Assembly: GCA_965220505.1 (NCBI GenBank)
Contig: CBDCQE010000001.1
Span: forward strand, 1,115,082-1,179,081
DNA length: 64,000 nucleotides
From: Dehalococcoidia bacterium
GTDB lineage: Bacteria > Chloroflexota > Dehalococcoidia > Lucifugimonadales > UBA3495
Direction of reading: 5' to 3'
The position numbers and the translations under genes are program-made. Numbering within the stretch: position 1 is the stretch's first letter; each line of letters opens with the position of its first letter. The notes below the pieces were generated by a model. That model was not told where the DNA came from. It worked only from the letters and a program-made list of their open reading frames with translations, and ran no database searches. This document shows positions 9,147 to 28,086 of the stretch, piece after piece.

Positions 9147-9213
9147 CAAGGAACGGCCGTCGATTTTGCCGGGATGATAGGGCAGCGTGGGAGATGGGTC
9201 AACCGGGAGTCAT

Positions 9214-9240
9214 GGCATGGATGGACAGGATGTACGGGAT
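9214..9240 (+). repeat. Dispersed repeat family A copy 1 (GCATGGATGGACAGGATGNACGGGAT)
   Basis: GGCATGGATGGACAGGATGTACGGGAT. It is near-identical to copies at 11593, 13582 and 25005, all in the same orientation. Confidence 0.8.
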
Positions 9241-11441: not shown

Positions 11442-11592
11442 GCCGGCGTGTCCAATTGTGGAACTCTCACCAGCATCGAACCGGAAATCAGCTTCTATGG
11501 AGCGATACTATCATTCCATCACTGGCTCAACAACACACTGCTGTCAGGTGATGAGCAGCCGAGGACAGCGTTCCGTTTCAGGTGGCTTCTTT

Positions 11593-11618
11593 GCATGGAT
11601 GGACAGGATGAACGGGAT
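11593..11618 (+). repeat. Dispersed repeat family A copy 2
   Basis: GCATGGATGGACAGGATGAACGGGAT. Confidence 0.8.
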
Positions 11619-11858: not shown

Positions 11859-13577
11859 ATGCCGCAGGCCCATGAGTTGATTGTGCAGTTTCTGGAGGAG
11901 GCGGGAATCGACGCCGTGTTCGGGATACCGGGCGGCGGGACGGGGCAGATTTTCACCAACCTGGTGGGAAAGGAGCCGGCGATCAACACGTACCTGACGC
12001 GGCACGAGCAGACGGCGGCGATCATGGCCGACGCTTACGCTCGGGCGACGGGGAAACCGGCGGTGATCATGGGGCAGGGGCTGTTCATGGGATCGAACGC
12101 ATCGTTCGGGATCATGGAGGCGATGCTGAGCAGCAGCCCGATGCTGGTGCTGACGGACACGTCGGACGGCGGCGTGGGGCAGCATCCGGCGAACCAGTCG
12201 GGGGCCGGCGAGTACGGGAGCATCGACCTCCACAACATCTTCCGGTCGATGACGAAGTACACGACCCTGGCGACCTCGCCCAAGGAGGCGGCGCTGGGGG
12301 CACAACTGGCGATCAAGCACTCGATGAGCGGGCGGCCGGGTCCGACGTGCCTGCTGATGCGGACGGCGTCCATCGCGGGGGAGGTTGACCTGGAGTCGCC
12401 GCCGTTCATCCACGACACGGCGGGGTACCTGAACACGGCCAAGCCACAGGCGGCGCCGGCGGACATCGAGAAGGCGGTGGAGATCCTGTCGCAGTCGCGG
12501 CGGCCGGTGATCGTGGCGGGTAACGGCGTGCACATGGCCGGGGCGCACGGCGCGCTGCAGCAACTAGCCGAGCAATGGAACGCGCCGGTGGCGACGAGCT
12601 ACAAGGGGAAATCGGCCATCGCGGAGACGCACCCGCTGTCGGTGGGCATGGTCGGGGTCTACGGGCAGGAGGCGGCGAACCGGGCGGTGGGCGACGCCGA
12701 CACGGTGGTGATCGTGGGGGCGAAGCTGAGCCCGCAGGACACGGTGCGGGAGCGGCCCAACATATTCAACCCGCGGGGGCAGCGGATCATCCAGATTGAC
12801 ATCGATGACCGGAACGCGGGATGGACCTTCCCGGTGGAACTGGGTCTGATCGGCGACGCGGGGAGCATCCTGGGGCAAATGGTGGAGGCATCGGCGGAGG
12901 AGGCGGGATTGACGGCGGGCAACCGGAGTGAGTGGGCCGGCGCGTTGCCGGGACGGAAGAATGACGCCGGGTTCTACGAGGACGCGGGGCTGCACACCGA
13001 CTCTTCGCCGGTGTTGCCGCAGCGGCTGGTGCGGGTCCTGCAGGAAACGATGCCGGCGGACACGGTGTACGCGCTGGACGCCGGGAACAACCGGACGTGG
13101 ATGGCGCACCTGTTCCAGTCGCAGCAGGCGCACACGTTCTTCTGCCCGGGCGGCACGGCCGGCATGGGCTGGGGATTGCCAGCGTCAGTGGGGCTCCAGA
13201 TCGCGTATCCGGGGCGGCCGGTGGTGAGCGTGACGGGAGACGGCGGGTACATGATGACGGTGAACGCACTGTCGACGGCGATGCAGTACAACCTGCCGAT
13301 CATCTGCGTGGTGTTCAACGACGGCGCGCTGGGCATGGTGCGGCATCACCAGGCTCCCGGGCAGTACATCGCATCGGAGTTCGCGGAGACGGACAACGCG
13401 GCGGTGGCGCGGGGGTTCGGGTGCTTCGGCGTGCAGGTGGCGGACTCGCGGAACCTGGGGGACGCGCTGAGGGATGCGCGGGCGTCGGGTCTGCCGGCGG
13501 TGGTGGACGTGCTGATCGACCGGGGGCCGAGTCCGGACGACTGGCGGGCGGACGCGCGGAGGTCGGGGGAGACTTAA
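11859..13577 (+). CDS. Thiamine-pyrophosphate-dependent enzyme, acetolactate synthase large-subunit-like (paralog 2 of 3)
   Basis: AHELIVQFLEEAGIDAVFGIPGGG N-terminal TPP domain. C-terminal GDGGYMM...NDGALG TPP-binding motif. Length is 572 aa. Confidence 0.85.
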   Translation: MPQAHELIVQFLEEAGIDAVFGIPGGGTGQIFTNLVGKEPAINTYLTRHEQTAAIMADAYARATGKPAVIMGQGLFMGSNASFGIMEAMLSSSPMLVLTDTSDGGVGQHPANQSGAGEYGSIDLHNIFRSMTKYTTLATSPKEAALGAQLAIKHSMSGRPGPTCLLMRTASIAGEVDLESPPFIHDTAGYLNTAKPQAAPADIEKAVEILSQSRRPVIVAGNGVHMAGAHGALQQLAEQWNAPVATSYKGKSAIAETHPLSVGMVGVYGQEAANRAVGDADTVVIVGAKLSPQDTVRERPNIFNPRGQRIIQIDIDDRNAGWTFPVELGLIGDAGSILGQMVEASAEEAGLTAGNRSEWAGALPGRKNDAGFYEDAGLHTDSSPVLPQRLVRVLQETMPADTVYALDAGNNRTWMAHLFQSQQAHTFFCPGGTAGMGWGLPASVGLQIAYPGRPVVSVTGDGGYMMTVNALSTAMQYNLPIICVVFNDGALGMVRHHQAPGQYIASEFAETDNAAVARGFGCFGVQVADSRNLGDALRDARASGLPAVVDVLIDRGPSPDDWRADARRSGET

Positions 13578-13581
13578 GCTT

Positions 13582-13608
13582 GCATCGATGCACAGGATGG
13601 ACGGGATT
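13582..13608 (+). repeat. Dispersed repeat family A copy 3 (slightly diverged)
   Basis: GCATCGATGCACAGGATGGACGGGATT. It begins 5 nt after the stop of the upstream gene. Confidence 0.7.
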
Positions 13609-17020: not shown

Positions 17021-17281
17021 TCAACGGGACCAGGACTTGACGGCTATCACCGTGGCGCACAAGAGAGAAGCGATGCAGAAGGTCGGCGTGGTCACCAGGG
17101 AAACCGCACCCCATCCGGGTATGAGCGACATTATCGCGACCGCCAGAGCGGCGGAGCCGCCCACGACCACGCCGGCGGCTATTGAATTGAGCAGGAGGTT
17201 GGAATGCCAAGGCTTACCCGCTTCGATGCGCAGAGCCTGGGCGGTGAGGTGCGAAATGGAAATCGACATTCTGCGGCTCAT
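17021..17281 (-). CDS. Small two-TM membrane protein (86 aa), hypothetical
   Basis: The ATG overlaps the TGA of the upstream PNPOx-like gene (ATGA). There are two hydrophobic helices (LLLNSIAAGVVVGGSAALAVAIMSLI; VSLVTTPTFCIASLLCATVIAV). The track embeds it in a 240-aa ORF whose upstream part is antisense noise. Confidence 0.45.
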   Translation of the reverse strand: MSRRMSISISHLTAQALRIEAGKPWHSNLLLNSIAAGVVVGGSAALAVAIMSLIPGWGAVSLVTTPTFCIASLLCATVIAVKSWSR

Positions 17282-17694
17282 CTTTCCTGTAGGACTTCTC
17301 CGGACAGCTGGTTGATGCGGTAGAGGCGGACCAGGACGGCGGCGCCGGTGCGGTCGGGGTCGCGGTCGAGCTCGCCCTGGACGGTGCGGGACATGACGTT
17401 GTCCCTGATTGCGCCTTCGCGGTACATGGATGCGGTGCCGTAGAAGCGCAAGTTCACGCGCTCGGTGGGGTGCCGATAGAAGAGGACGACCTTGGAACCG
17501 TTCTGGATATTGGCGGCGGAGTTGCGCCAGCCGCGTTCCCAGAAGGCCAGAGTCTCCCGATCGAACACCAGAACGCTGCCGCGCATGCTGATCTGGGGCT
17601 CGCCGTCCAGGGATACGGTAGCAATGAACATGGGGCAGCGGTCGGCCAGCGCGTTGTCGATACGGCGGCGAAGTTCGTCGTCGATGTAGATCAT
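17278..17694 (-). CDS. Pyridoxamine 5'-phosphate oxidase-like FMN-binding split-barrel protein
   Basis: The start MIYIDDELRRRIDNALADRCPMFIATVSLDGEPQISMRGS is typical of the PNPOx-like/general stress protein 26 fold. RBS GGAGA lies 6 nt upstream of ATG 17694. Confidence 0.7.
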   Translation of the reverse strand: MIYIDDELRRRIDNALADRCPMFIATVSLDGEPQISMRGSVLVFDRETLAFWERGWRNSAANIQNGSKVVLFYRHPTERVNLRFYGTASMYREGAIRDNVMSRTVQGELDRDPDRTGAAVLVRLYRINQLSGEVLQER

Positions 17695-17864
17695 GGGAGT
17701 CTCCTGAAGCATGCTGCCGGGTGCAGGGCCGTTTCGAGGACACCGCACCCGAGTCAGTGGATGGCTCCTATAGGATACCCGACGGAATGCGGGGTGAGCG
17801 GGACAAGGATTGACGGGCTATCGCTAGCCCGTCCGGCGCAAACTGAGTGTACAAAGCGGGACGG

Positions 17865-20808: not shown

Positions 20809-21240
20809 GGTGGCTATCAGTGCCTAATTCGGGAATAAATGGCAGCATTATGTTGTATAATGCCGCCGATTGGATTGAGGTAGGTAGGTTTGACCGTAGA
20901 GTACGACGAATTATAAGTGAGTCCGCCCGGTGTGGCAACATGGCCGAACCGGGTAATGACGTGTCTGCACCGGCCAACAACACTAGCACCTTGACGTGAC
21001 TATCCTCGGCTGGCGTGGACAGGGATAGCGTTGAATGGCTGCTAAAAGTCTGCCGAAACGGGCTCCGTATGTTGCGAGAAAGGGAATGTTGTTGAACACG
21101 AACTACCACCTGCGACGTTATGTTATATCGTACGTATCTTGAAGTCTCCCGACAAGGCACCCTGATGTTTGACCGGCGCGCCCGGCCCACTCGAATCAGA
21201 CCGTCAACCGTTGCAAAACTTACAGGAGCAATTCTCCAAA

Positions 21241-24200
21241 ATGGCCGCTAGTTTGGAAATCCACGATCTGCTCAACTCCGGACAGGTGCAGGTGCGCCTG
21301 GTTGAAGCGTCGGGCGATGCACGGGAAGCAGCGCCGGCAGCTTTCGGCATAGACCTTTCCGAGGAGGAGCGCGGAGCGCTGGACCGCTATCACACGGAGT
21401 TCCGGCGCGGGTCGCCGGGGGGCATTGCCCAAATCGAAGCCGTCGAACTCGCCATGCGGAACCTAGGCCGATTGCTGTTCGAATCGGCGTTCGGCGCGGA
21501 TAGCGAAGCCCGTGAGTTGCTGGATGAGGTGATGGCGCGGGACGAACGCGGCGTGCTGGCGATCGTGTCCTCGCGCGCGGGGTTCATGTCGCTGCCGTGG
21601 GAACTGATGAACGACCCGTCGCTGGGATACTTCATCAACGGATTGGTGGGAGTGGTGCGACAATCCTCCAGCCAGGCGCCGGCGGACGATGTGGAAGTGG
21701 TAGAAGAAGACACGCTGAACGTGCTGATGCTTTCGAGCAGCCCCCTGGCGTTGGATGTCCCCAGCGCCGGATCGCTGCTGCCGGATCCGGTGGCAGCCGG
21801 CGCCAGCCTGGCCGAGGCGACGGTGGCGGCGCTGGAGGGGCTGAACGTCCAGGTGTCCTTGGACAACCCGAGGCCGGCTACGCTGTCCGCGCTACAAGAT
21901 CTCCTGGCGCGCAACCCGGGGCGCTACCACGTGGCCCACATCGACGGGGCCACCCTGAGTGATGGCGGGTCAATCGTACTGGAGCAGGATGACGGCGGTC
22001 CCAGCGCCGTTGCCGCCGCGGAACTGGGCGGCGCGCTGGCGGCGGGCGGGGTCAACGTGGCGTTGATCACTGCGGGGGTGCAGGAAGACTTTCCGCCGCT
22101 GGCATCGTGGTCCGAGGCGGCGATGGCGGTGGCTGAGGCCGGCGTCGCGCAGGTGGCAGTCCTGCCGGTTCCGGTGCATCCGGATGCCGGAGACGGCGCG
22201 GTGGCTGCGTTCTACCGTCGCATCGCGCAGGGCTATACCGTATCGGAGGCGGTATCCTCGGTGCGCCGCGGGCTGATGGACACGCCGGAGCGGGTCACGA
22301 TGTACGGCCGGCGGGTGTTCTGGGACTGGCACCTGCCGTGCGTCTACCAGTCGCGCGTCCACCAACCGCCGGTGATAGCCCAGGTCCAACCAGACCCGCT
22401 GGCTGCGCCGGTGATCCACCCGGAGGAAGCGCCGACCGACGACTTGCAGATTCCCGTGGCCGGTCAATACGGATTGGTGGGGCGACAAGCGGAACTGCGG
22501 CAGCTGGAGCGGGCCCTGAAGACGCACTCGGTGGTGCACCTGTCGGGCGACACCGGCACGGGCAAGACCGAACTGGCCCTGGCGCTGTGCCGGTGGTTCC
22601 TGAAGCCGGCTCGGGTCGCGTACCCGGGCGGCGTGTTCTACACGGCATTTGAGACCTCGCAGCCGGCCGGCCTGGAGCGAGTGGTGCACGAGATCGGGAC
22701 GGCGGTGGCGGGGCTGGATTTCGCGGACATGCCGGCGGAGCAACAACGGAGGTGGGTGACGGCTTACCTGAACGACAACGCGTCGTTATTGGTTTGGGAC
22801 AACCTGGAAAACGTGGCCGGCTTTCCAGACGGCGCTCCTGGCTTGCTGAGCGAAGAGGAACTGCCGGAGCTTGCGGCATTCCTGGGCGACGTGACCACCG
22901 GGCCCGCGGGGACACACGCGCTGCTGCTGGGCAGAAGGGCCGAGGAGGAATGGGTCTCCGGGTCACACGCCTCCCTGACGCTGGATGGGTTGGCGGGGGC
23001 GGACCGACTGGCCCTGGTCGCTCAAATCATGCACCAGGCGGAGGTGCCCGCTACGCGGGTCGACGCCGACTTTTTTGAGTTGCTGGGTCTCCTAGATGGG
23101 CACCCGTTGGCGATGCAGATCACGATACCCCCGGTGAAGGAGGTTCCGGCGGCGGCGGCAGTCAGCGAGATGGCGAGGCTCATCGACAGCGAGCCGGAGG
23201 GTGGCGAGGCGGGGCGCGGGGCGACGCTGACGGCGGCGATGGAGTACGCATTCTCGCGGATGTCGCGGCGGAACCGGACGCATCTGCCGTTCCTGTCGCT
23301 GTTCCAGCGCAGAGTGATGCTGGACGTGCTGTCGCACATCACGGAGGAGCGGGCCTACAGCCAGATCGTGGGGGACGACCTGACCGCGGGGGCATCGCGG
23401 AGCCTGCTCTCGCCGGAGGGCGGGATGCAGTCGTCCGGGCGCTCGTATGCATCTTGCCGCACTATGCTGCGGTCGGCGCACGCCGCCGGGTTCCTGGAAT
23501 CGATCTCGCCCAGCGTTTACCAGATCAACCCGTCGATACCGTGGTTCCTGGGTCGGAAATTGGGTAGGCAAGTTGCCGGCAACGGGATCCAGCAGCTTGA
23601 AATTGAGTTCGTCCGGGTGTACGCCGATACTGCGGACTACTTTATGGAAAGCCTCTATGAGAACCAGGACACCGGCGTCACGGCGGTGCTGGCGGAAGAG
23701 GGCAACCTGACGCAAGCGCTGGGGTTGGCGCTGGAGTACCGGCAGTGGGACAACGCGCAGGTGTTGTTCCAGCCATTGGCGCAGGTTTACCGGATGCAGA
23801 AACGGTTCCCGGAGTTGCGACGGCTGCGCGGCCAGTTGCTGGATACCATCGGGCACACCGCCGGCGAAGCGGAAGGCAACGGAGCCATCGAGTTCTGGCA
23901 ATACCTGCTCGGAACGGACGCAATGGAATCGGTCGAGCGGATGGACCTGGAACGGGCGGACCTGTTCAACCGGCAATTGCTGGATTACCTGCTGGAGCAA
24001 CCGGACGGAGAGACGGACGCGCGCACTGCGGCCGTCTACCACCAGAACGGTCTGATCGCCACGCGGCGGGGTCAGTACGACACCGCATCGGAGTGGCTGG
24101 AGCGGGGGCTGGAGATCATCGACGGTGGCGAGGACCAGGAGTCGATTGCCGACGCCTGTTTCGCCATCGGGCAAGTGCGGCAGCACCAGCGCCAGTACGG

Positions 24201-24996
24201 GGCGGCCAAGGAGTGGTACTCGCGGGCGTTGGACATCCACCAGCGGCTGCCCGACTATGAGGAAATGGTCAACGACTTTCGCGCCCTGGGGTCGGCTTGC
24301 CACTTGCGGTTCGAATACGACGAAGCGCGTAGCTGGTACCACCGGGCGCGGGAGATCGTGGAAGAAAACCGGGACGAAGAAACTGCGGTCTACATCTTCC
24401 ATTCGCTGGGAACGGTGGACCACTCGGAGTACCTGTTTGAGGACGCGCAATCCTGGTACCAGCAGGCTTTGGGCCTGAGCGACCGCCTGGGCATGACCGA
24501 GCAGATGATCGTCGAGTTCCATCACCTGGGCACCCTGGCGCAGGCGCGCGGCATCACGGATGAGGCGGACGAATGGCTGCGGGTAGCCATGGAGTACCGG
24601 GAAGAGATGGGCGACGTGCGGGGCGTGGGCGTGGAGGCGCGGCAGTTGGGAGTGGTCCACCACGAGCAGGGGGATCTAGACCAGGCCTATCACTGGTACG
24701 ACCAGGCCCGCATCGCGTTTGAAAATGTGCGCGACGTGCTGCGGGCGGCGCGAACTTACGGCCAGCTGGGCCTGGTTGAGGAACAGCGGGGGAATCTGCC
24801 CGACGCGCTGGAATGGGTAGCCCGGACTTACCAACTGGTTGCGGACCACCAACTGCCCATGCTGGTGCAGGTGAAGGCGCACCTGGCGCGGCTGAAGGAG
24901 CAGATGGGGGAGGAACCCTTCGCTCAATGGTGGCGGGACAACACCGGCGCGGAACCGCCGACAGACCTCGACGTGGACGCCAGTGAAATCCTGTGA
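21241..24996 (+). CDS. STAND NTPase: N-terminal CHAT-like (caspase-fold) domain, NB-ARC/AAA P-loop NTPase, C-terminal TPR array
   Basis: The CHAT-like part has LPWELM, LNVLMLSSSP, YHVAHIDG and ...EAGVAQVAVLPVPVHPDAGDGAVAAFYRRIAQGYTVSEAV. Walker A is GDTGTGKT and Walker B is LLVWDNLE. The last ~400 aa carry at least 8 TPR-like units (A..WY.RAL.I...). The start is taken at ATG 21241, 24 codons inside the listed ORF. Confidence 0.82.
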   Translation: MAASLEIHDLLNSGQVQVRLVEASGDAREAAPAAFGIDLSEEERGALDRYHTEFRRGSPGGIAQIEAVELAMRNLGRLLFESAFGADSEARELLDEVMARDERGVLAIVSSRAGFMSLPWELMNDPSLGYFINGLVGVVRQSSSQAPADDVEVVEEDTLNVLMLSSSPLALDVPSAGSLLPDPVAAGASLAEATVAALEGLNVQVSLDNPRPATLSALQDLLARNPGRYHVAHIDGATLSDGGSIVLEQDDGGPSAVAAAELGGALAAGGVNVALITAGVQEDFPPLASWSEAAMAVAEAGVAQVAVLPVPVHPDAGDGAVAAFYRRIAQGYTVSEAVSSVRRGLMDTPERVTMYGRRVFWDWHLPCVYQSRVHQPPVIAQVQPDPLAAPVIHPEEAPTDDLQIPVAGQYGLVGRQAELRQLERALKTHSVVHLSGDTGTGKTELALALCRWFLKPARVAYPGGVFYTAFETSQPAGLERVVHEIGTAVAGLDFADMPAEQQRRWVTAYLNDNASLLVWDNLENVAGFPDGAPGLLSEEELPELAAFLGDVTTGPAGTHALLLGRRAEEEWVSGSHASLTLDGLAGADRLALVAQIMHQAEVPATRVDADFFELLGLLDGHPLAMQITIPPVKEVPAAAAVSEMARLIDSEPEGGEAGRGATLTAAMEYAFSRMSRRNRTHLPFLSLFQRRVMLDVLSHITEERAYSQIVGDDLTAGASRSLLSPEGGMQSSGRSYASCRTMLRSAHAAGFLESISPSVYQINPSIPWFLGRKLGRQVAGNGIQQLEIEFVRVYADTADYFMESLYENQDTGVTAVLAEEGNLTQALGLALEYRQWDNAQVLFQPLAQVYRMQKRFPELRRLRGQLLDTIGHTAGEAEGNGAIEFWQYLLGTDAMESVERMDLERADLFNRQLLDYLLEQPDGETDARTAAVYHQNGLIATRRGQYDTASEWLERGLEIIDGGEDQESIADACFAIGQVRQHQRQYGAAKEWYSRALDIHQRLPDYEEMVNDFRALGSACHLRFEYDEARSWYHRAREIVEENRDEETAVYIFHSLGTVDHSEYLFEDAQSWYQQALGLSDRLGMTEQMIVEFHHLGTLAQARGITDEADEWLRVAMEYREEMGDVRGVGVEARQLGVVHHEQGDLDQAYHWYDQARIAFENVRDVLRAARTYGQLGLVEEQRGNLPDALEWVARTYQLVADHQLPMLVQVKAHLARLKEQMGEEPFAQWWRDNTGAEPPTDLDVDASEIL

Positions 24997-25004
24997 CCGG
25001 GAAT

Positions 25005-25031
25005 GGCATGGATGGACAGTATGGACGGGAT
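25005..25031 (+). repeat. Dispersed repeat family A copy 4
   Basis: GGCATGGATGGACAGTATGGACGGGAT. It lies 9 nt after the STAND stop codon and 19 nt before the next start codon. Confidence 0.75.
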
Positions 25032-27080: not shown

Positions 27081-27593
27081 ATGTCGGTAACGGCTATCAA
27101 AGTTGCTATTTTGAAGGCTCGGAAACAACTGGAATTATTTGATCGGCATGATTACGAGTACAACGAAACTACAACCCGTTACGTGCTGATCGACCCTCTG
27201 GTCCGAGCCTCGGGGTGGGACATACACGATCTGGACCAATGCACCTTCGAATGGAGTATGCCAAGGCGCAGCCCCATCGGGAGGTCGGACTACGTGCTGT
27301 GGGACTCGGACGATGAAAGTGTCATTGTGATAGAAGCCAAAAGCATAGGCATAGCCCTGAAGACCCGCCCACCGTCAATAGAGCGCAAACTGGCAGGGTA
27401 CACTCGGGGAATGAAACGCGGTGTTGCAGTGCTGACCAACGGCCTATGTTGGCACCTATACGAACTGGATTCCAGTCGCAGGGCGTTCAAGAACAAGCAT
27501 GTGGCAGAGGTGGATATTCGGGAAGGCTATGGGAGCATTAGTGGTGCGGCCAAGACTTTGCATGAGTGGCTGAACAAAGATCGATGGCGGTAG
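27081..27593 (+). CDS. Stand-alone HsdR_N-like PD-(D/E)xK nuclease-fold protein (type I restriction enzyme R N-terminal domain-like)
   Basis: NETTTRYVLIDPLVRASGW...RSDYVLWD...VIVIEAKS gives the D...ExK arrangement typical of HsdR_N/Mrr-like domains. RBS GGAGGAA precedes ATG 27081. Confidence 0.6.
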   Translation: MSVTAIKVAILKARKQLELFDRHDYEYNETTTRYVLIDPLVRASGWDIHDLDQCTFEWSMPRRSPIGRSDYVLWDSDDESVIVIEAKSIGIALKTRPPSIERKLAGYTRGMKRGVAVLTNGLCWHLYELDSSRRAFKNKHVAEVDIREGYGSISGAAKTLHEWLNKDRWR

Positions 27594-27628
27594 CGGTTCC
27601 GGTCTGAACTGCGCAGGGAGATGTAGAA

Positions 27629-27835
27629 GTGGACGAGCTCGTTTTTGAGGTTACCGAGGCCGTCGAGGGCGGATACGATGCGCGGGCTGTTGGGCACAGC
27701 ATCTTCACGCAGGGGAACGATTGGGCAGACCTGAAAGCGATGGTGAAGGATGCGGTGCTTTGTCATTTTGATGATGACGAGTTGCCCGCCGCAATTCGGC
27801 TACACTTGGTGAAGGATGAAGTCATGATCGTATGA
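27629..27835 (+). CDS. hicB: HicB-like antitoxin (68 aa)
   Basis: Small acidic protein with a GTG start and RBS GGGAG. Its stop overlaps the hicA start (ATGA). The sequence EVTEAVEGGYDARAVGHSIFTQGNDWADLKAMVKDAV is typical of the HicB N-terminal fold. Confidence 0.6.
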   Translation: MDELVFEVTEAVEGGYDARAVGHSIFTQGNDWADLKAMVKDAVLCHFDDDELPAAIRLHLVKDEVMIV

Positions 27836-28086
27836 CGCTGCCACGTGATCTTTCGGGCGACGAGTTGGTTAGGTTGTTGCGCCGCAACTATGGATACCGC
27901 TTGATTCGGCAGCGGGGCAGCCACTTGCGATTGGCGAGCAATTTTCGTGGCACCGAGCATCGCGTGTCGGTTCCTCGTCATCGGCAATTGAATGTGGGAA
28001 CATTGAGCGGCATCATATCCGACGTTGCAGAATACTTGGGTTTGACGTCCACGGAAGTGCGCCGAGTTCTGTTCGACAACACCTAA
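27832..28086 (+). CDS. hicA: HicA-family mRNA interferase toxin
   Basis: LSGDELVRLLRRNYGYRLIRQRGSHLRL... matches the HicA/YcfA pattern (G-x-x-x-R-Q-x-GSH). Confidence 0.75.
   Translation: MTLPRDLSGDELVRLLRRNYGYRLIRQRGSHLRLASNFRGTEHRVSVPRHRQLNVGTLSGIISDVAEYLGLTSTEVRRVLFDNT

Follow-up and report, generated by a model that had tools for sequence, protein, structure and literature searches.

Current work characterises STAND/NLR-like proteins that carry caspase-like heads as devices of bacterial immunity and cell death. Caspase folds can also be inactive, and the pseudo-protease domains of c-FLIP and separase are of this kind, serving binding or regulation. In the known module that joins a caspase-like protease to an alpha/beta-hydrolase, an active protease with its catalytic Cys is needed for cleavage (PMC12642450). 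STAND clades that serve defence are intermixed with clades that do not, and function has switched many times (PMC13581612). Here, we analysed a 64,000-nt stretch of a Dehalococcoidia bacterium genome (assembly GCA_965220505.1, contig CBDCQE010000001.1, positions 1,115,082 to 1,179,081 of the forward strand; hereafter the window), in which one open reading frame (ORF) encodes a protein with an N-terminal CHAT-like domain, a STAND nucleotide-binding oligomerisation module (NOD) and an array of tetratricopeptide repeats (TPR). In one GTDB family of SAR202-type Dehalococcoidia the gene belongs to the core, being single-copy, syntenic and vertically inherited, and the catalytic dyad of its caspase fold appears to be lost. 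We conclude, with a probability of about 0.7, that its product is a domesticated, catalytically dead CHAT-NOD-TPR STAND switch that signals by binding.

The caspase-fold head and its active site

The N-terminal region matches the Pfam CHAT profile (PF12770) over residues 101-352 with 32.5 bits, against a curated cut-off of 24, and with 34.2 bits in the genome search. Since PDB sequence searches with the CHAT-like region, as a single sequence or as a 16-sequence profile, returned chance-level matches only, a fold comparison was needed. The AlphaFold2 (AF2) model of residues 1-410, built from 59 family sequences, had a predicted local distance difference test score (pLDDT) of 85 and a predicted template modelling score (pTM) of 0.86. 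A Foldseek search of this model against the PDB retrieved separase, the SAVED-CHAT filament, the type III-E CRISPR TPR-CHAT protein Csx29, DdvA and caspase-8/-9 with E values of 1e-7 to 1e-3, and the c-FLIP:caspase-8 complex (3h11_B) was among the matches. Profile and fold thus bear out the CHAT-like domain that a preliminary description of the window, made from the sequence alone, had assigned to the N-terminus.

For placement of the catalytic dyad, residues 1-400 were compared by phmmer with 1.84 billion representative proteins, giving 1134 matches at E<=1e-3, the more distant of which are mostly proteins of 1000-1500 aa that share the N-terminal domain. Dyad-bearing relatives read Y-H-[IVL]-V-H-F-D-G-H-G and V-L-N-A-C-[QR]-S, and at the corresponding segments the window protein reads Y-H-V-A-H-I-D-G-A-T and L-I-T-A-G-V-Q. 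The segment VALITAGVQ (residues 273-281), from which the preliminary description had judged the catalytic Cys to be missing, does carry G279 at the Cys position. The His that it had pointed to in YHVAHIDG (residues 229-236) is present but is not the catalytic one: H233 corresponds to the upstream structural His of the H-x3-H-G motif, and the catalytic His of the relatives aligns with A237, so that this residue is lost too. Residues 237 and 279 follow the AF2 strands 231-237 and 273-278, which is the location of the dyad in caspase-fold enzymes.

In an alignment anchored on a hidden Markov model, His or Cys was found at the dyad columns in none of the 103 family members, whereas both were present in 105 of the 129 aligned stretches from distant relatives. 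These 105 dyad-bearing stretches formed the comparison set, in which His237 and Cys279 are fixed by the selection of the set itself. Three further positions are near-invariant there and lost in the family, namely R167 (105/105), G238 (104/105) and S/T281 (101/105); the window protein has S167, A237, T238 and A278-G279 at the lost positions, and residues 1-400 hold no Cys that is conserved in the family. Because the dyad is absent from all 103 members and present in most of the distant stretches, the N-terminal domain is, as judged from its sequence, a CHAT member by fold and descent and not an active peptidase. The pseudo-protease or scaffold suggested earlier is therefore supported in a stronger form than had been claimed, with the His, the Cys, the adjacent Gly, S/T281 and the Arg lost in every member.

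Scaffold motifs common to the dead and the dyad-bearing groups are PWE (119-121), R140, H233, D235, E248, R342, R351 and D362-W363, and about 25 positions of the CHAT-like region are invariant in the family. Newly conserved, in the dead clade only, are the helix RNLGRLLFE (73-81), N124, W290 and W361. A search of the window's genome for CHAT genes, made with an active pairing partner in mind, yielded no second one; pairing with an active CHAT paralog of the same genome, in the style of c-FLIP and caspase-8, was rejected on this ground. We found no paper on this protein family, and none linking the CHAT domain with SAR202.

Nucleotide-binding module, TPR array and descent

The AF2 model of residues 405-920 (pLDDT 88) gave NRC2/NRC3/NRC4, Sr35, CED-4 and Apaf-1 as its best Foldseek matches, followed by NLRP7 and ORC/Cdc6. 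The Walker A and Walker B motifs recognised in the preliminary description were confirmed (positions in Table 1), and GDTGTGKT, LLVWDN and GHPLA are invariant or nearly so across the 59 sequences. Its assignment of the module to the NB-ARC STANDs holds in part: the STAND architecture, the fold and the GHPLA motif agree with it, but neither the Pfam NB-ARC profile (PF00931) nor NACHT (PF05729) matched the window protein. The P-loop region, at about residues 412-548, gave only sub-threshold Pfam matches to AAA_16, AAA_25, nSTAND3 and AAA_22, while some relatives pass NACHT or carry PF00931.

The long, sensor-like TPR array noted earlier was recovered by Pfam as TPR_12 (7.5e-26, in five stretches), TPR_1, TPR_2 and TPR_MalT, together with a weak and partial AfsR TPR match; by sequence, the NOD-TPR part matched only designed consensus-TPR proteins in the PDB. 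The C-terminal tail follows the pattern F..WW…DLDVDxSxIL, which is conserved in most family members. Its acidic end, DLDVDxSxIL, recalls the EEVD-type C-terminal peptides that dock in TPR grooves, and by this analogy the tail might mediate self-inhibition or partner binding.

Pairwise dN/dS within the genus was 0.23 for the N-terminal extension, 0.25 for the CHAT region, 0.13 for the NTPase, 0.10 for the middle part and 0.056 for the TPR array, values that are rough because dS, at about 1.2, is near saturation. Purifying selection acts in every domain, and with 0.056 the supposed sensor is the most constrained part of the protein. Mean identity in the genus is 88% in the TPR array, and the CHAT region, with 63% identity, is the least conserved part of the protein.

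The gene is present in one copy in the window's own genome and in one intact copy in 24 of 24 species of the genus. Across the GTDB family it was found in 188 of 191 genomes, 25 of 26 genera and all 99 high-quality genomes, with one match in most, and it is kept with a head of full length even in genomes of 1.5-1.8 Mb. The surrounding backbone was the same in ten out of ten divergent species of the genus and in all 80 loci taken from Dehalococcoidia, SAR202 and Chloroflexota metagenome-assembled genomes, whose isolate names indicate sponge, open-ocean and Lake Baikal samples, and it persists in relatives with just 35-40% identity in the N-terminal region. In order, the backbone comprises a thiamine pyrophosphate (TPP) enzyme, an ADP-forming acyl-CoA synthetase, a PNPOx gene (minus strand), a slot with two CitE-like genes (minus strand), the STAND gene, Abhydrolase_10, a slot with variable small genes, an F420/LLM oxidoreductase, MmgE/PrpD, an extracytoplasmic function (ECF) sigma factor, its anti-sigma factor and ThyX. 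The preliminary description had the gene inserted in a metabolic cluster; this is not supported, the position being ancestral for the whole family.

Outside the family, no full-length homolog was found in 240 other genomes of the order. Seven genomes in two other families of the order encode a NOD-TPR protein of about 835-850 aa that has no CHAT domain and lies at another chromosomal place. CHAT-less homologs were seen at loci L108-L112 (genomes G247, G351, G380, G366 and G422). They begin exactly at the conserved motif LPPxGxYGFVGR and share 37-40% identity with the window protein in the NOD and 30-35% in the TPR part. Dyad-bearing relatives, which are more distant from the window protein than these CHAT-less homologs, are colinear with it over its whole length, with identities of 25-30% in CHAT, 25-31% in NOD and 22-32% in TPR. 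In the IQ-TREE phylogeny of the NOD region, the dead-CHAT proteins form a clade (100/100) whose sister is the CHAT-less clade (99/96), and under midpoint rooting the joint clade (100/100) is nested among dyad-bearing lineages. On the simplest reading, protease activity had become dispensable on the joint stem, after which the residues disappeared in one branch and the domain in the other.

In filamentous cyanobacteria the nearest dyad-bearing clade has undergone a strong expansion (3334 proteins at E<=1e-30). Two of its loci were examined, and both are variable or mobile contexts: the member of Tolypothrix sp. PCC 7601 adjoins a phage integrase, prophage genes and other Peptidase_C14-STAND genes, and that of Nostoc sp. 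UHCC 0702 adjoins a PIN-domain gene and small unnamed genes. The contrast between a fixed dead family and a variable dyad-bearing clade fits the view of interspersed defence and non-defence clades (PMC13581612).

Neighbouring genes and upstream spacer

The coordinates of the gene, its domains and the adjacent features are collected in Table 1.

Table 1. Features of the STAND gene, its product and its surroundings, in positions of the window
Feature	Residues	Position	Strand	Basis or remarks
STAND gene (CHAT-like / STAND NTPase / TPR)	1-1251	21241..24996, stop codon included	+	1251-aa ORF, ATG at 21241
N-terminal extension, beta-hairpin and helices	1-100	21241..21540	+	AF2 model
Conserved helix RNLGRLLFE, specific to dead clade	73-81	21457-21483	+	Conservation comparison
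Caspase/CHAT-fold domain, predicted catalytically dead	101-380	21541..22380	+	Pfam CHAT, Foldseek
Codon of A237, catalytic-His position	237	21949..21951	+	His in 105/105 comparison stretches; A/V/I/L in family
Codon of G279, catalytic-Cys position	279	22075..22077	+	Cys in 105/105 comparison stretches; Gly in 96/103 family members, never Cys
STAND nucleotide-binding oligomerisation module (nucleotide-binding domain, helical domain, winged helix)	411-915	22471..23985	+	AF2, Foldseek, motifs
Walker A GDTGTGKT	436-443	22546-22569	+	Motif
Walker B LLVWDNLE	516-523	22786-22809	+	Motif
GHPLA motif (NB-ARC 'GLPLA' type)	620-624	23098-23112	+	Motif
TPR array, most conserved part of the protein	916-1215	23986..24885	+	Pfam TPR_12, TPR_MalT
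Conserved C-terminal tail	1216-1251	24886..24993	+	Family alignment
Family-specific acidic end DLDVDASEIL	1242-1251	24964-24993	+	Motif
Ribosome-binding site AGGAG		21224..21228	+	12 nt ahead of ATG; ACAGGAG kept in genus alignment
Divergent intergenic spacer, CitE-like operon (-) / STAND gene (+)		20809..21240		432 nt, GC 0.516
Palindrome GCATTATGTTGTATAATGC containing TATAAT (20858-20863)		20845..20863	+	Kept across divergent species of genus
Sigma-70-like promoter match TTGCCA-17-TATAAT, directed at CitE-like genes		20910..20938	-	11/12 positions; consensus match only
Abhydrolase_10 (PF20091) gene	663 aa	25050..27041	+	Starts 53 nt 3' of STAND gene

The preliminary description had likened the architecture to antiviral STANDs of the Avs type. 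This defence reading found no support: the orthologs are syntenic core genes with no defence-island context. PADLOC matched the window protein only with its generic 'TPR repeats' model (PDLC01169) and with no Avs, bNACHT or other STAND model, and among ten neighbours it detected no defence system around the STAND gene and nothing for the immediate neighbours. The sole candidate for a functional effector is the CHAT domain, which has no dyad. Nearby defence-type genes are limited to variable accessories: some 10 kb upstream lies a type II restriction-modification system, and two genes downstream a small HsdR_N-like protein. The latter, a PD-(D/E)xK protein of 170 aa with a weak PADLOC REase_I match, lies in an islet (27081-28086) between the hydrolase and the LLM gene that also contains a pair of small ORFs (68 and 84 aa) overlapping each other; the islet looks like an insertion hot spot, because the HsdR_N gene is present in some relatives only, at 37-57% identity.

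The gene had been placed between the CitE operon and a hydrolase gene, as is the case: CitE-like genes lie on the minus strand upstream of it, and downstream comes an alpha/beta hydrolase. It had also been said to sit alone, which is not quite so, since the Abhydrolase_10 gene follows closely in the same orientation. Most of the 80 loci keep the two genes adjacent; several family members have no such gene downstream. The Abhydrolase_10 family, with proteins of about 660 aa, is multi-copy and was found in 135 of 251 genomes of the order, the majority of which have no STAND gene. The window's genome has three copies, the one in the window and two others (G000:C3:855933-857882 and G000:C1:1595288-1597216). 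In five genomes from other families of the order, four of them with no full-length STAND gene, the best homologs of the hydrolase lie outside this backbone. An obligate two-gene system of STAND and Abhydrolase_10 was considered and is weakened by these differing phyletic patterns. The adjacency is not universal, the family is spread in multiple copies with homologs elsewhere, and the known module needs a Cys that is absent here; the hydrolase is therefore treated as a syntenic neighbour, possibly co-transcribed with the STAND gene but not a demonstrated partner. Abhydrolase_10 (PF20091) has no NCBIfam name, and we found no paper mentioning either name or accession; in SAR202-type bacteria it represents an expanded family of enzymes that is yet to be characterised.

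Upstream, the preliminary description had reported a 1251-aa protein preceded by about 430 bp of non-coding DNA of lower GC content. Both points were confirmed, with the start and ribosome-binding site of Table 1 and a spacer that contrasts in GC with the gene itself (0.660). Beyond the palindrome, the minus-strand promoter-like site and the ribosome-binding site, conservation of the spacer in the genus alignment is limited to close relatives, and an Rfam scan of positions 20809-21240 gave no match. The palindrome GCATTATGTTGTATAATGC occurs once in the whole window and is retained even in one species without the CitE genes. From its sequence, it could serve the STAND gene as a -10 box or operator, or the CitE operon as an operator or 5'-untranslated-region hairpin. 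The promoter-like hexamers TTGCCA and TATAAT are also visible in relatives in the same alignment.

Past the stop codon, the 53-nt spacer holds a copy (25001-25031, plus strand) of a dispersed repeat of about 26-31 nt, GCATGGATGGACAG.ATG.ACGGGAT. The window has four copies in total, the others at 9210-9240, 11588-11618 and 13577-13607, all on the plus strand and all in short spacers directly 3' of stop codons. In about 14 related loci a copy lies 10-15 nt past the stop codon of the STAND gene. The repeat may be an RNA-level element for processing, termination or translation coupling. Elsewhere in the backbone, a tblastn search with the PNPOx protein of locus L023 as query showed that the 240-aa ORF at 17021-17743 (minus strand) encloses the conserved 139-aa PNPOx-like gene, whose real start is probably further downstream than the listed start of that ORF.

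Function and comparison with known systems

The loss of the cutting residues together with fixed vertical inheritance makes a re-purposed binding switch, and not an antiviral weapon, the most likely role of the protein. Under the mechanism that we propose, the protein would still be a switch driven by nucleotide. Binding of a conserved cellular ligand or protein to the TPR array would trigger ADP/ATP exchange and NOD oligomerisation, as in Apaf-1, CED-4 and plant NLRs, and the clustered caspase-fold domains would then form a docking or trapping platform through their newly conserved surface (RNLGRLLFE helix, N124, W290, W361), so that the output would be binding rather than cleavage. Deletion of CHAT in the sister families implies that the NOD-TPR core carries the essential function. 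More tentatively, and as a possibility that we hold at below even odds, one SAR202 family may have captured, at its base, an immune-type, apoptosome-like receptor that is now an indispensable housekeeping switch, with its dead head as a substrate-trap or docking platform for a conserved cellular partner. Such a partner might be, for example, a regulator of the neighbouring carbon-catabolic genes or of the ECF sigma/anti-sigma pair.

Several points weigh against the binding switch. The dyad was placed by sequence and profile alignment and by AF2 strand register, without coordinate superposition; the dN/dS values carry the near-saturation mentioned above; the co-directional alpha/beta hydrolase is conserved 53 nt downstream, and pairs of a caspase-like protease and an alpha/beta-hydrolase are a known defence module (PMC12642450); and core, vertically inherited genes can still be immune genes. 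One alternative is a protein that is still an antiviral or abortive-infection sensor, its TPR array sensing a phage protein and Abhydrolase_10 or another effector being activated through recruitment to the dead CHAT platform rather than through cleavage. The architecture equals that of Avs-like and bacterial NLR-like proteins, in most of the 80 loci the hydrolase is the next gene and has the same orientation, its pairing would resemble the protease-zymogen type of defence (PMC12642450), and the variable HsdR_N-like islet lies two genes downstream. We nevertheless consider this sensor unlikely, as no PADLOC family matches, the gene belongs to the core across the whole family, in single copy and with fixed synteny, and is neither patchy nor mobile, the part that should track phage is the most conserved (dN/dS 0.056), the known hydrolase module needs the catalytic Cys that is absent here, and Abhydrolase_10 is multi-copy, found in 135 of 251 genomes mostly without the STAND gene, and missing downstream in several members. 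It is rather improbable that function resides in the NOD-TPR part only, with the CHAT-like domain decaying as a relic without a role of its own that is heading for the loss seen in the sister families. The CHAT-less homologs of about 835-850 aa in two other families of the order would fit such a course, as would the low conservation of the CHAT region (63% identity, dN/dS 0.25), but a dN/dS of 0.25 is well under neutral, the full-length domain is kept in 188 of 191 genomes, those of 1.5-1.8 Mb included, and about 25 invariant positions, the residues specific to the dead clade (RNLGRLLFE, N124, W290, W361) and a confident AF2 fold all argue for a maintained domain.

Two further explanations concern the output. 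A cryptic protease that uses, for example, S110, H233 and D235 in place of the lost dyad is hardly credible: these residues are 92-98% conserved in the family, but they are equally conserved in the dyad-bearing relatives and are for that reason structural rather than replacements, and a triad of this type is not known from any caspase-fold enzyme. Very improbable, too, is a MalT/AfsR-like protein that regulates transcription of the adjacent catabolic genes, or one that controls the ECF sigma/anti-sigma pair. The TPR_MalT and weak AfsR TPR matches point in that direction, non-immune STAND-TPR regulators are known (PMC13581612), the sigma and anti-sigma genes are conserved in the backbone a few genes downstream, and DdvA, a CHAT-TPR anti-sigma factor (PMC11506125), is among the fold matches of the head. 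Against this, Pfam and NCBIfam detected no DNA-binding domain, the link to the sigma pair is one of synteny only, and DdvA differs from the cytoplasmic window protein in having an intact dyad and in being a membrane protein.

If the binding switch is right, the family represents the opposite fate to that of the immune and cell-death devices with caspase-like heads. Protease chemistry has been discarded, as residues in one family and as a whole domain in its sisters, while the ATP switch and the repeats remain under strong constraint, in a single-copy gene that is almost universal in an abundant lineage of marine and sponge-associated bacteria. The family would be a natural experiment in the domestication of immune-type receptors, a caution against labelling such architectures as defence genes, and a conserved gene worth targeting in SAR202 biology. 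Were the capture of a receptor also true, bacteria would offer a clear example of an NLR-like protein that passed by exaptation from a role in conflict to one in core physiology and was kept even in streamlined genomes of 1.5 Mb.

Among known proteins, the dyad-bearing CHAT-NOD-TPR STANDs of filamentous cyanobacteria and of other bacteria (for example Tolypothrix P0265 and Nostoc P0294) are alike in domain order and in the motifs PWE, H-x-D-G, R342, R351 and DW; unlike the window family, they keep R167, H237, G238, C279 and S281, and they are expanded and of variable length. A caspase-like head on a STAND sensor also occurs in the systems described by Evans et al. (2025 preprint, PMC12642450), namely KrAvs12, in which a caspase-like protease is fused to an Avs STAND, with EACC1, and LcCaspase with an alpha/beta-hydrolase zymogen. 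One of the modules has an adjacent hydrolase, but both need the catalytic Cys and cleave their effector. The fragments of LcHydrolase sum to about 33 kDa (PMC12642450), compared with a 663-aa Abhydrolase_10 here that belongs to a metabolic-looking, multi-copy family.

MalT, AfsR and GutR are, like the window protein, chromosomal and non-mobile combinations of a STAND NTPase with a TPR-like sensor; they bind a cellular ligand and carry a DNA-binding output, whereas the window protein has a dead caspase fold and no detected helix-turn-helix. A caspase fold without catalytic residues is shared with c-FLIP and the separase pseudo-protease domain, although c-FLIP pairs with an active paralog, and the window's genome has no other CHAT gene. 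The Apaf-1/CED-4 apoptosome and the plant CNL resistosomes gave the best fold matches and resemble the modelled protein in the GxPLA and Walker A/B motifs and, putatively, in an oligomerisation logic that gathers caspase-type domains. Their sensors are WD40 repeats or leucine-rich repeats in place of the TPR array, and where Apaf-1 and CED-4 recruit a separate, active caspase through a CARD, the window protein carries an inactive caspase fold fused to the switch itself.

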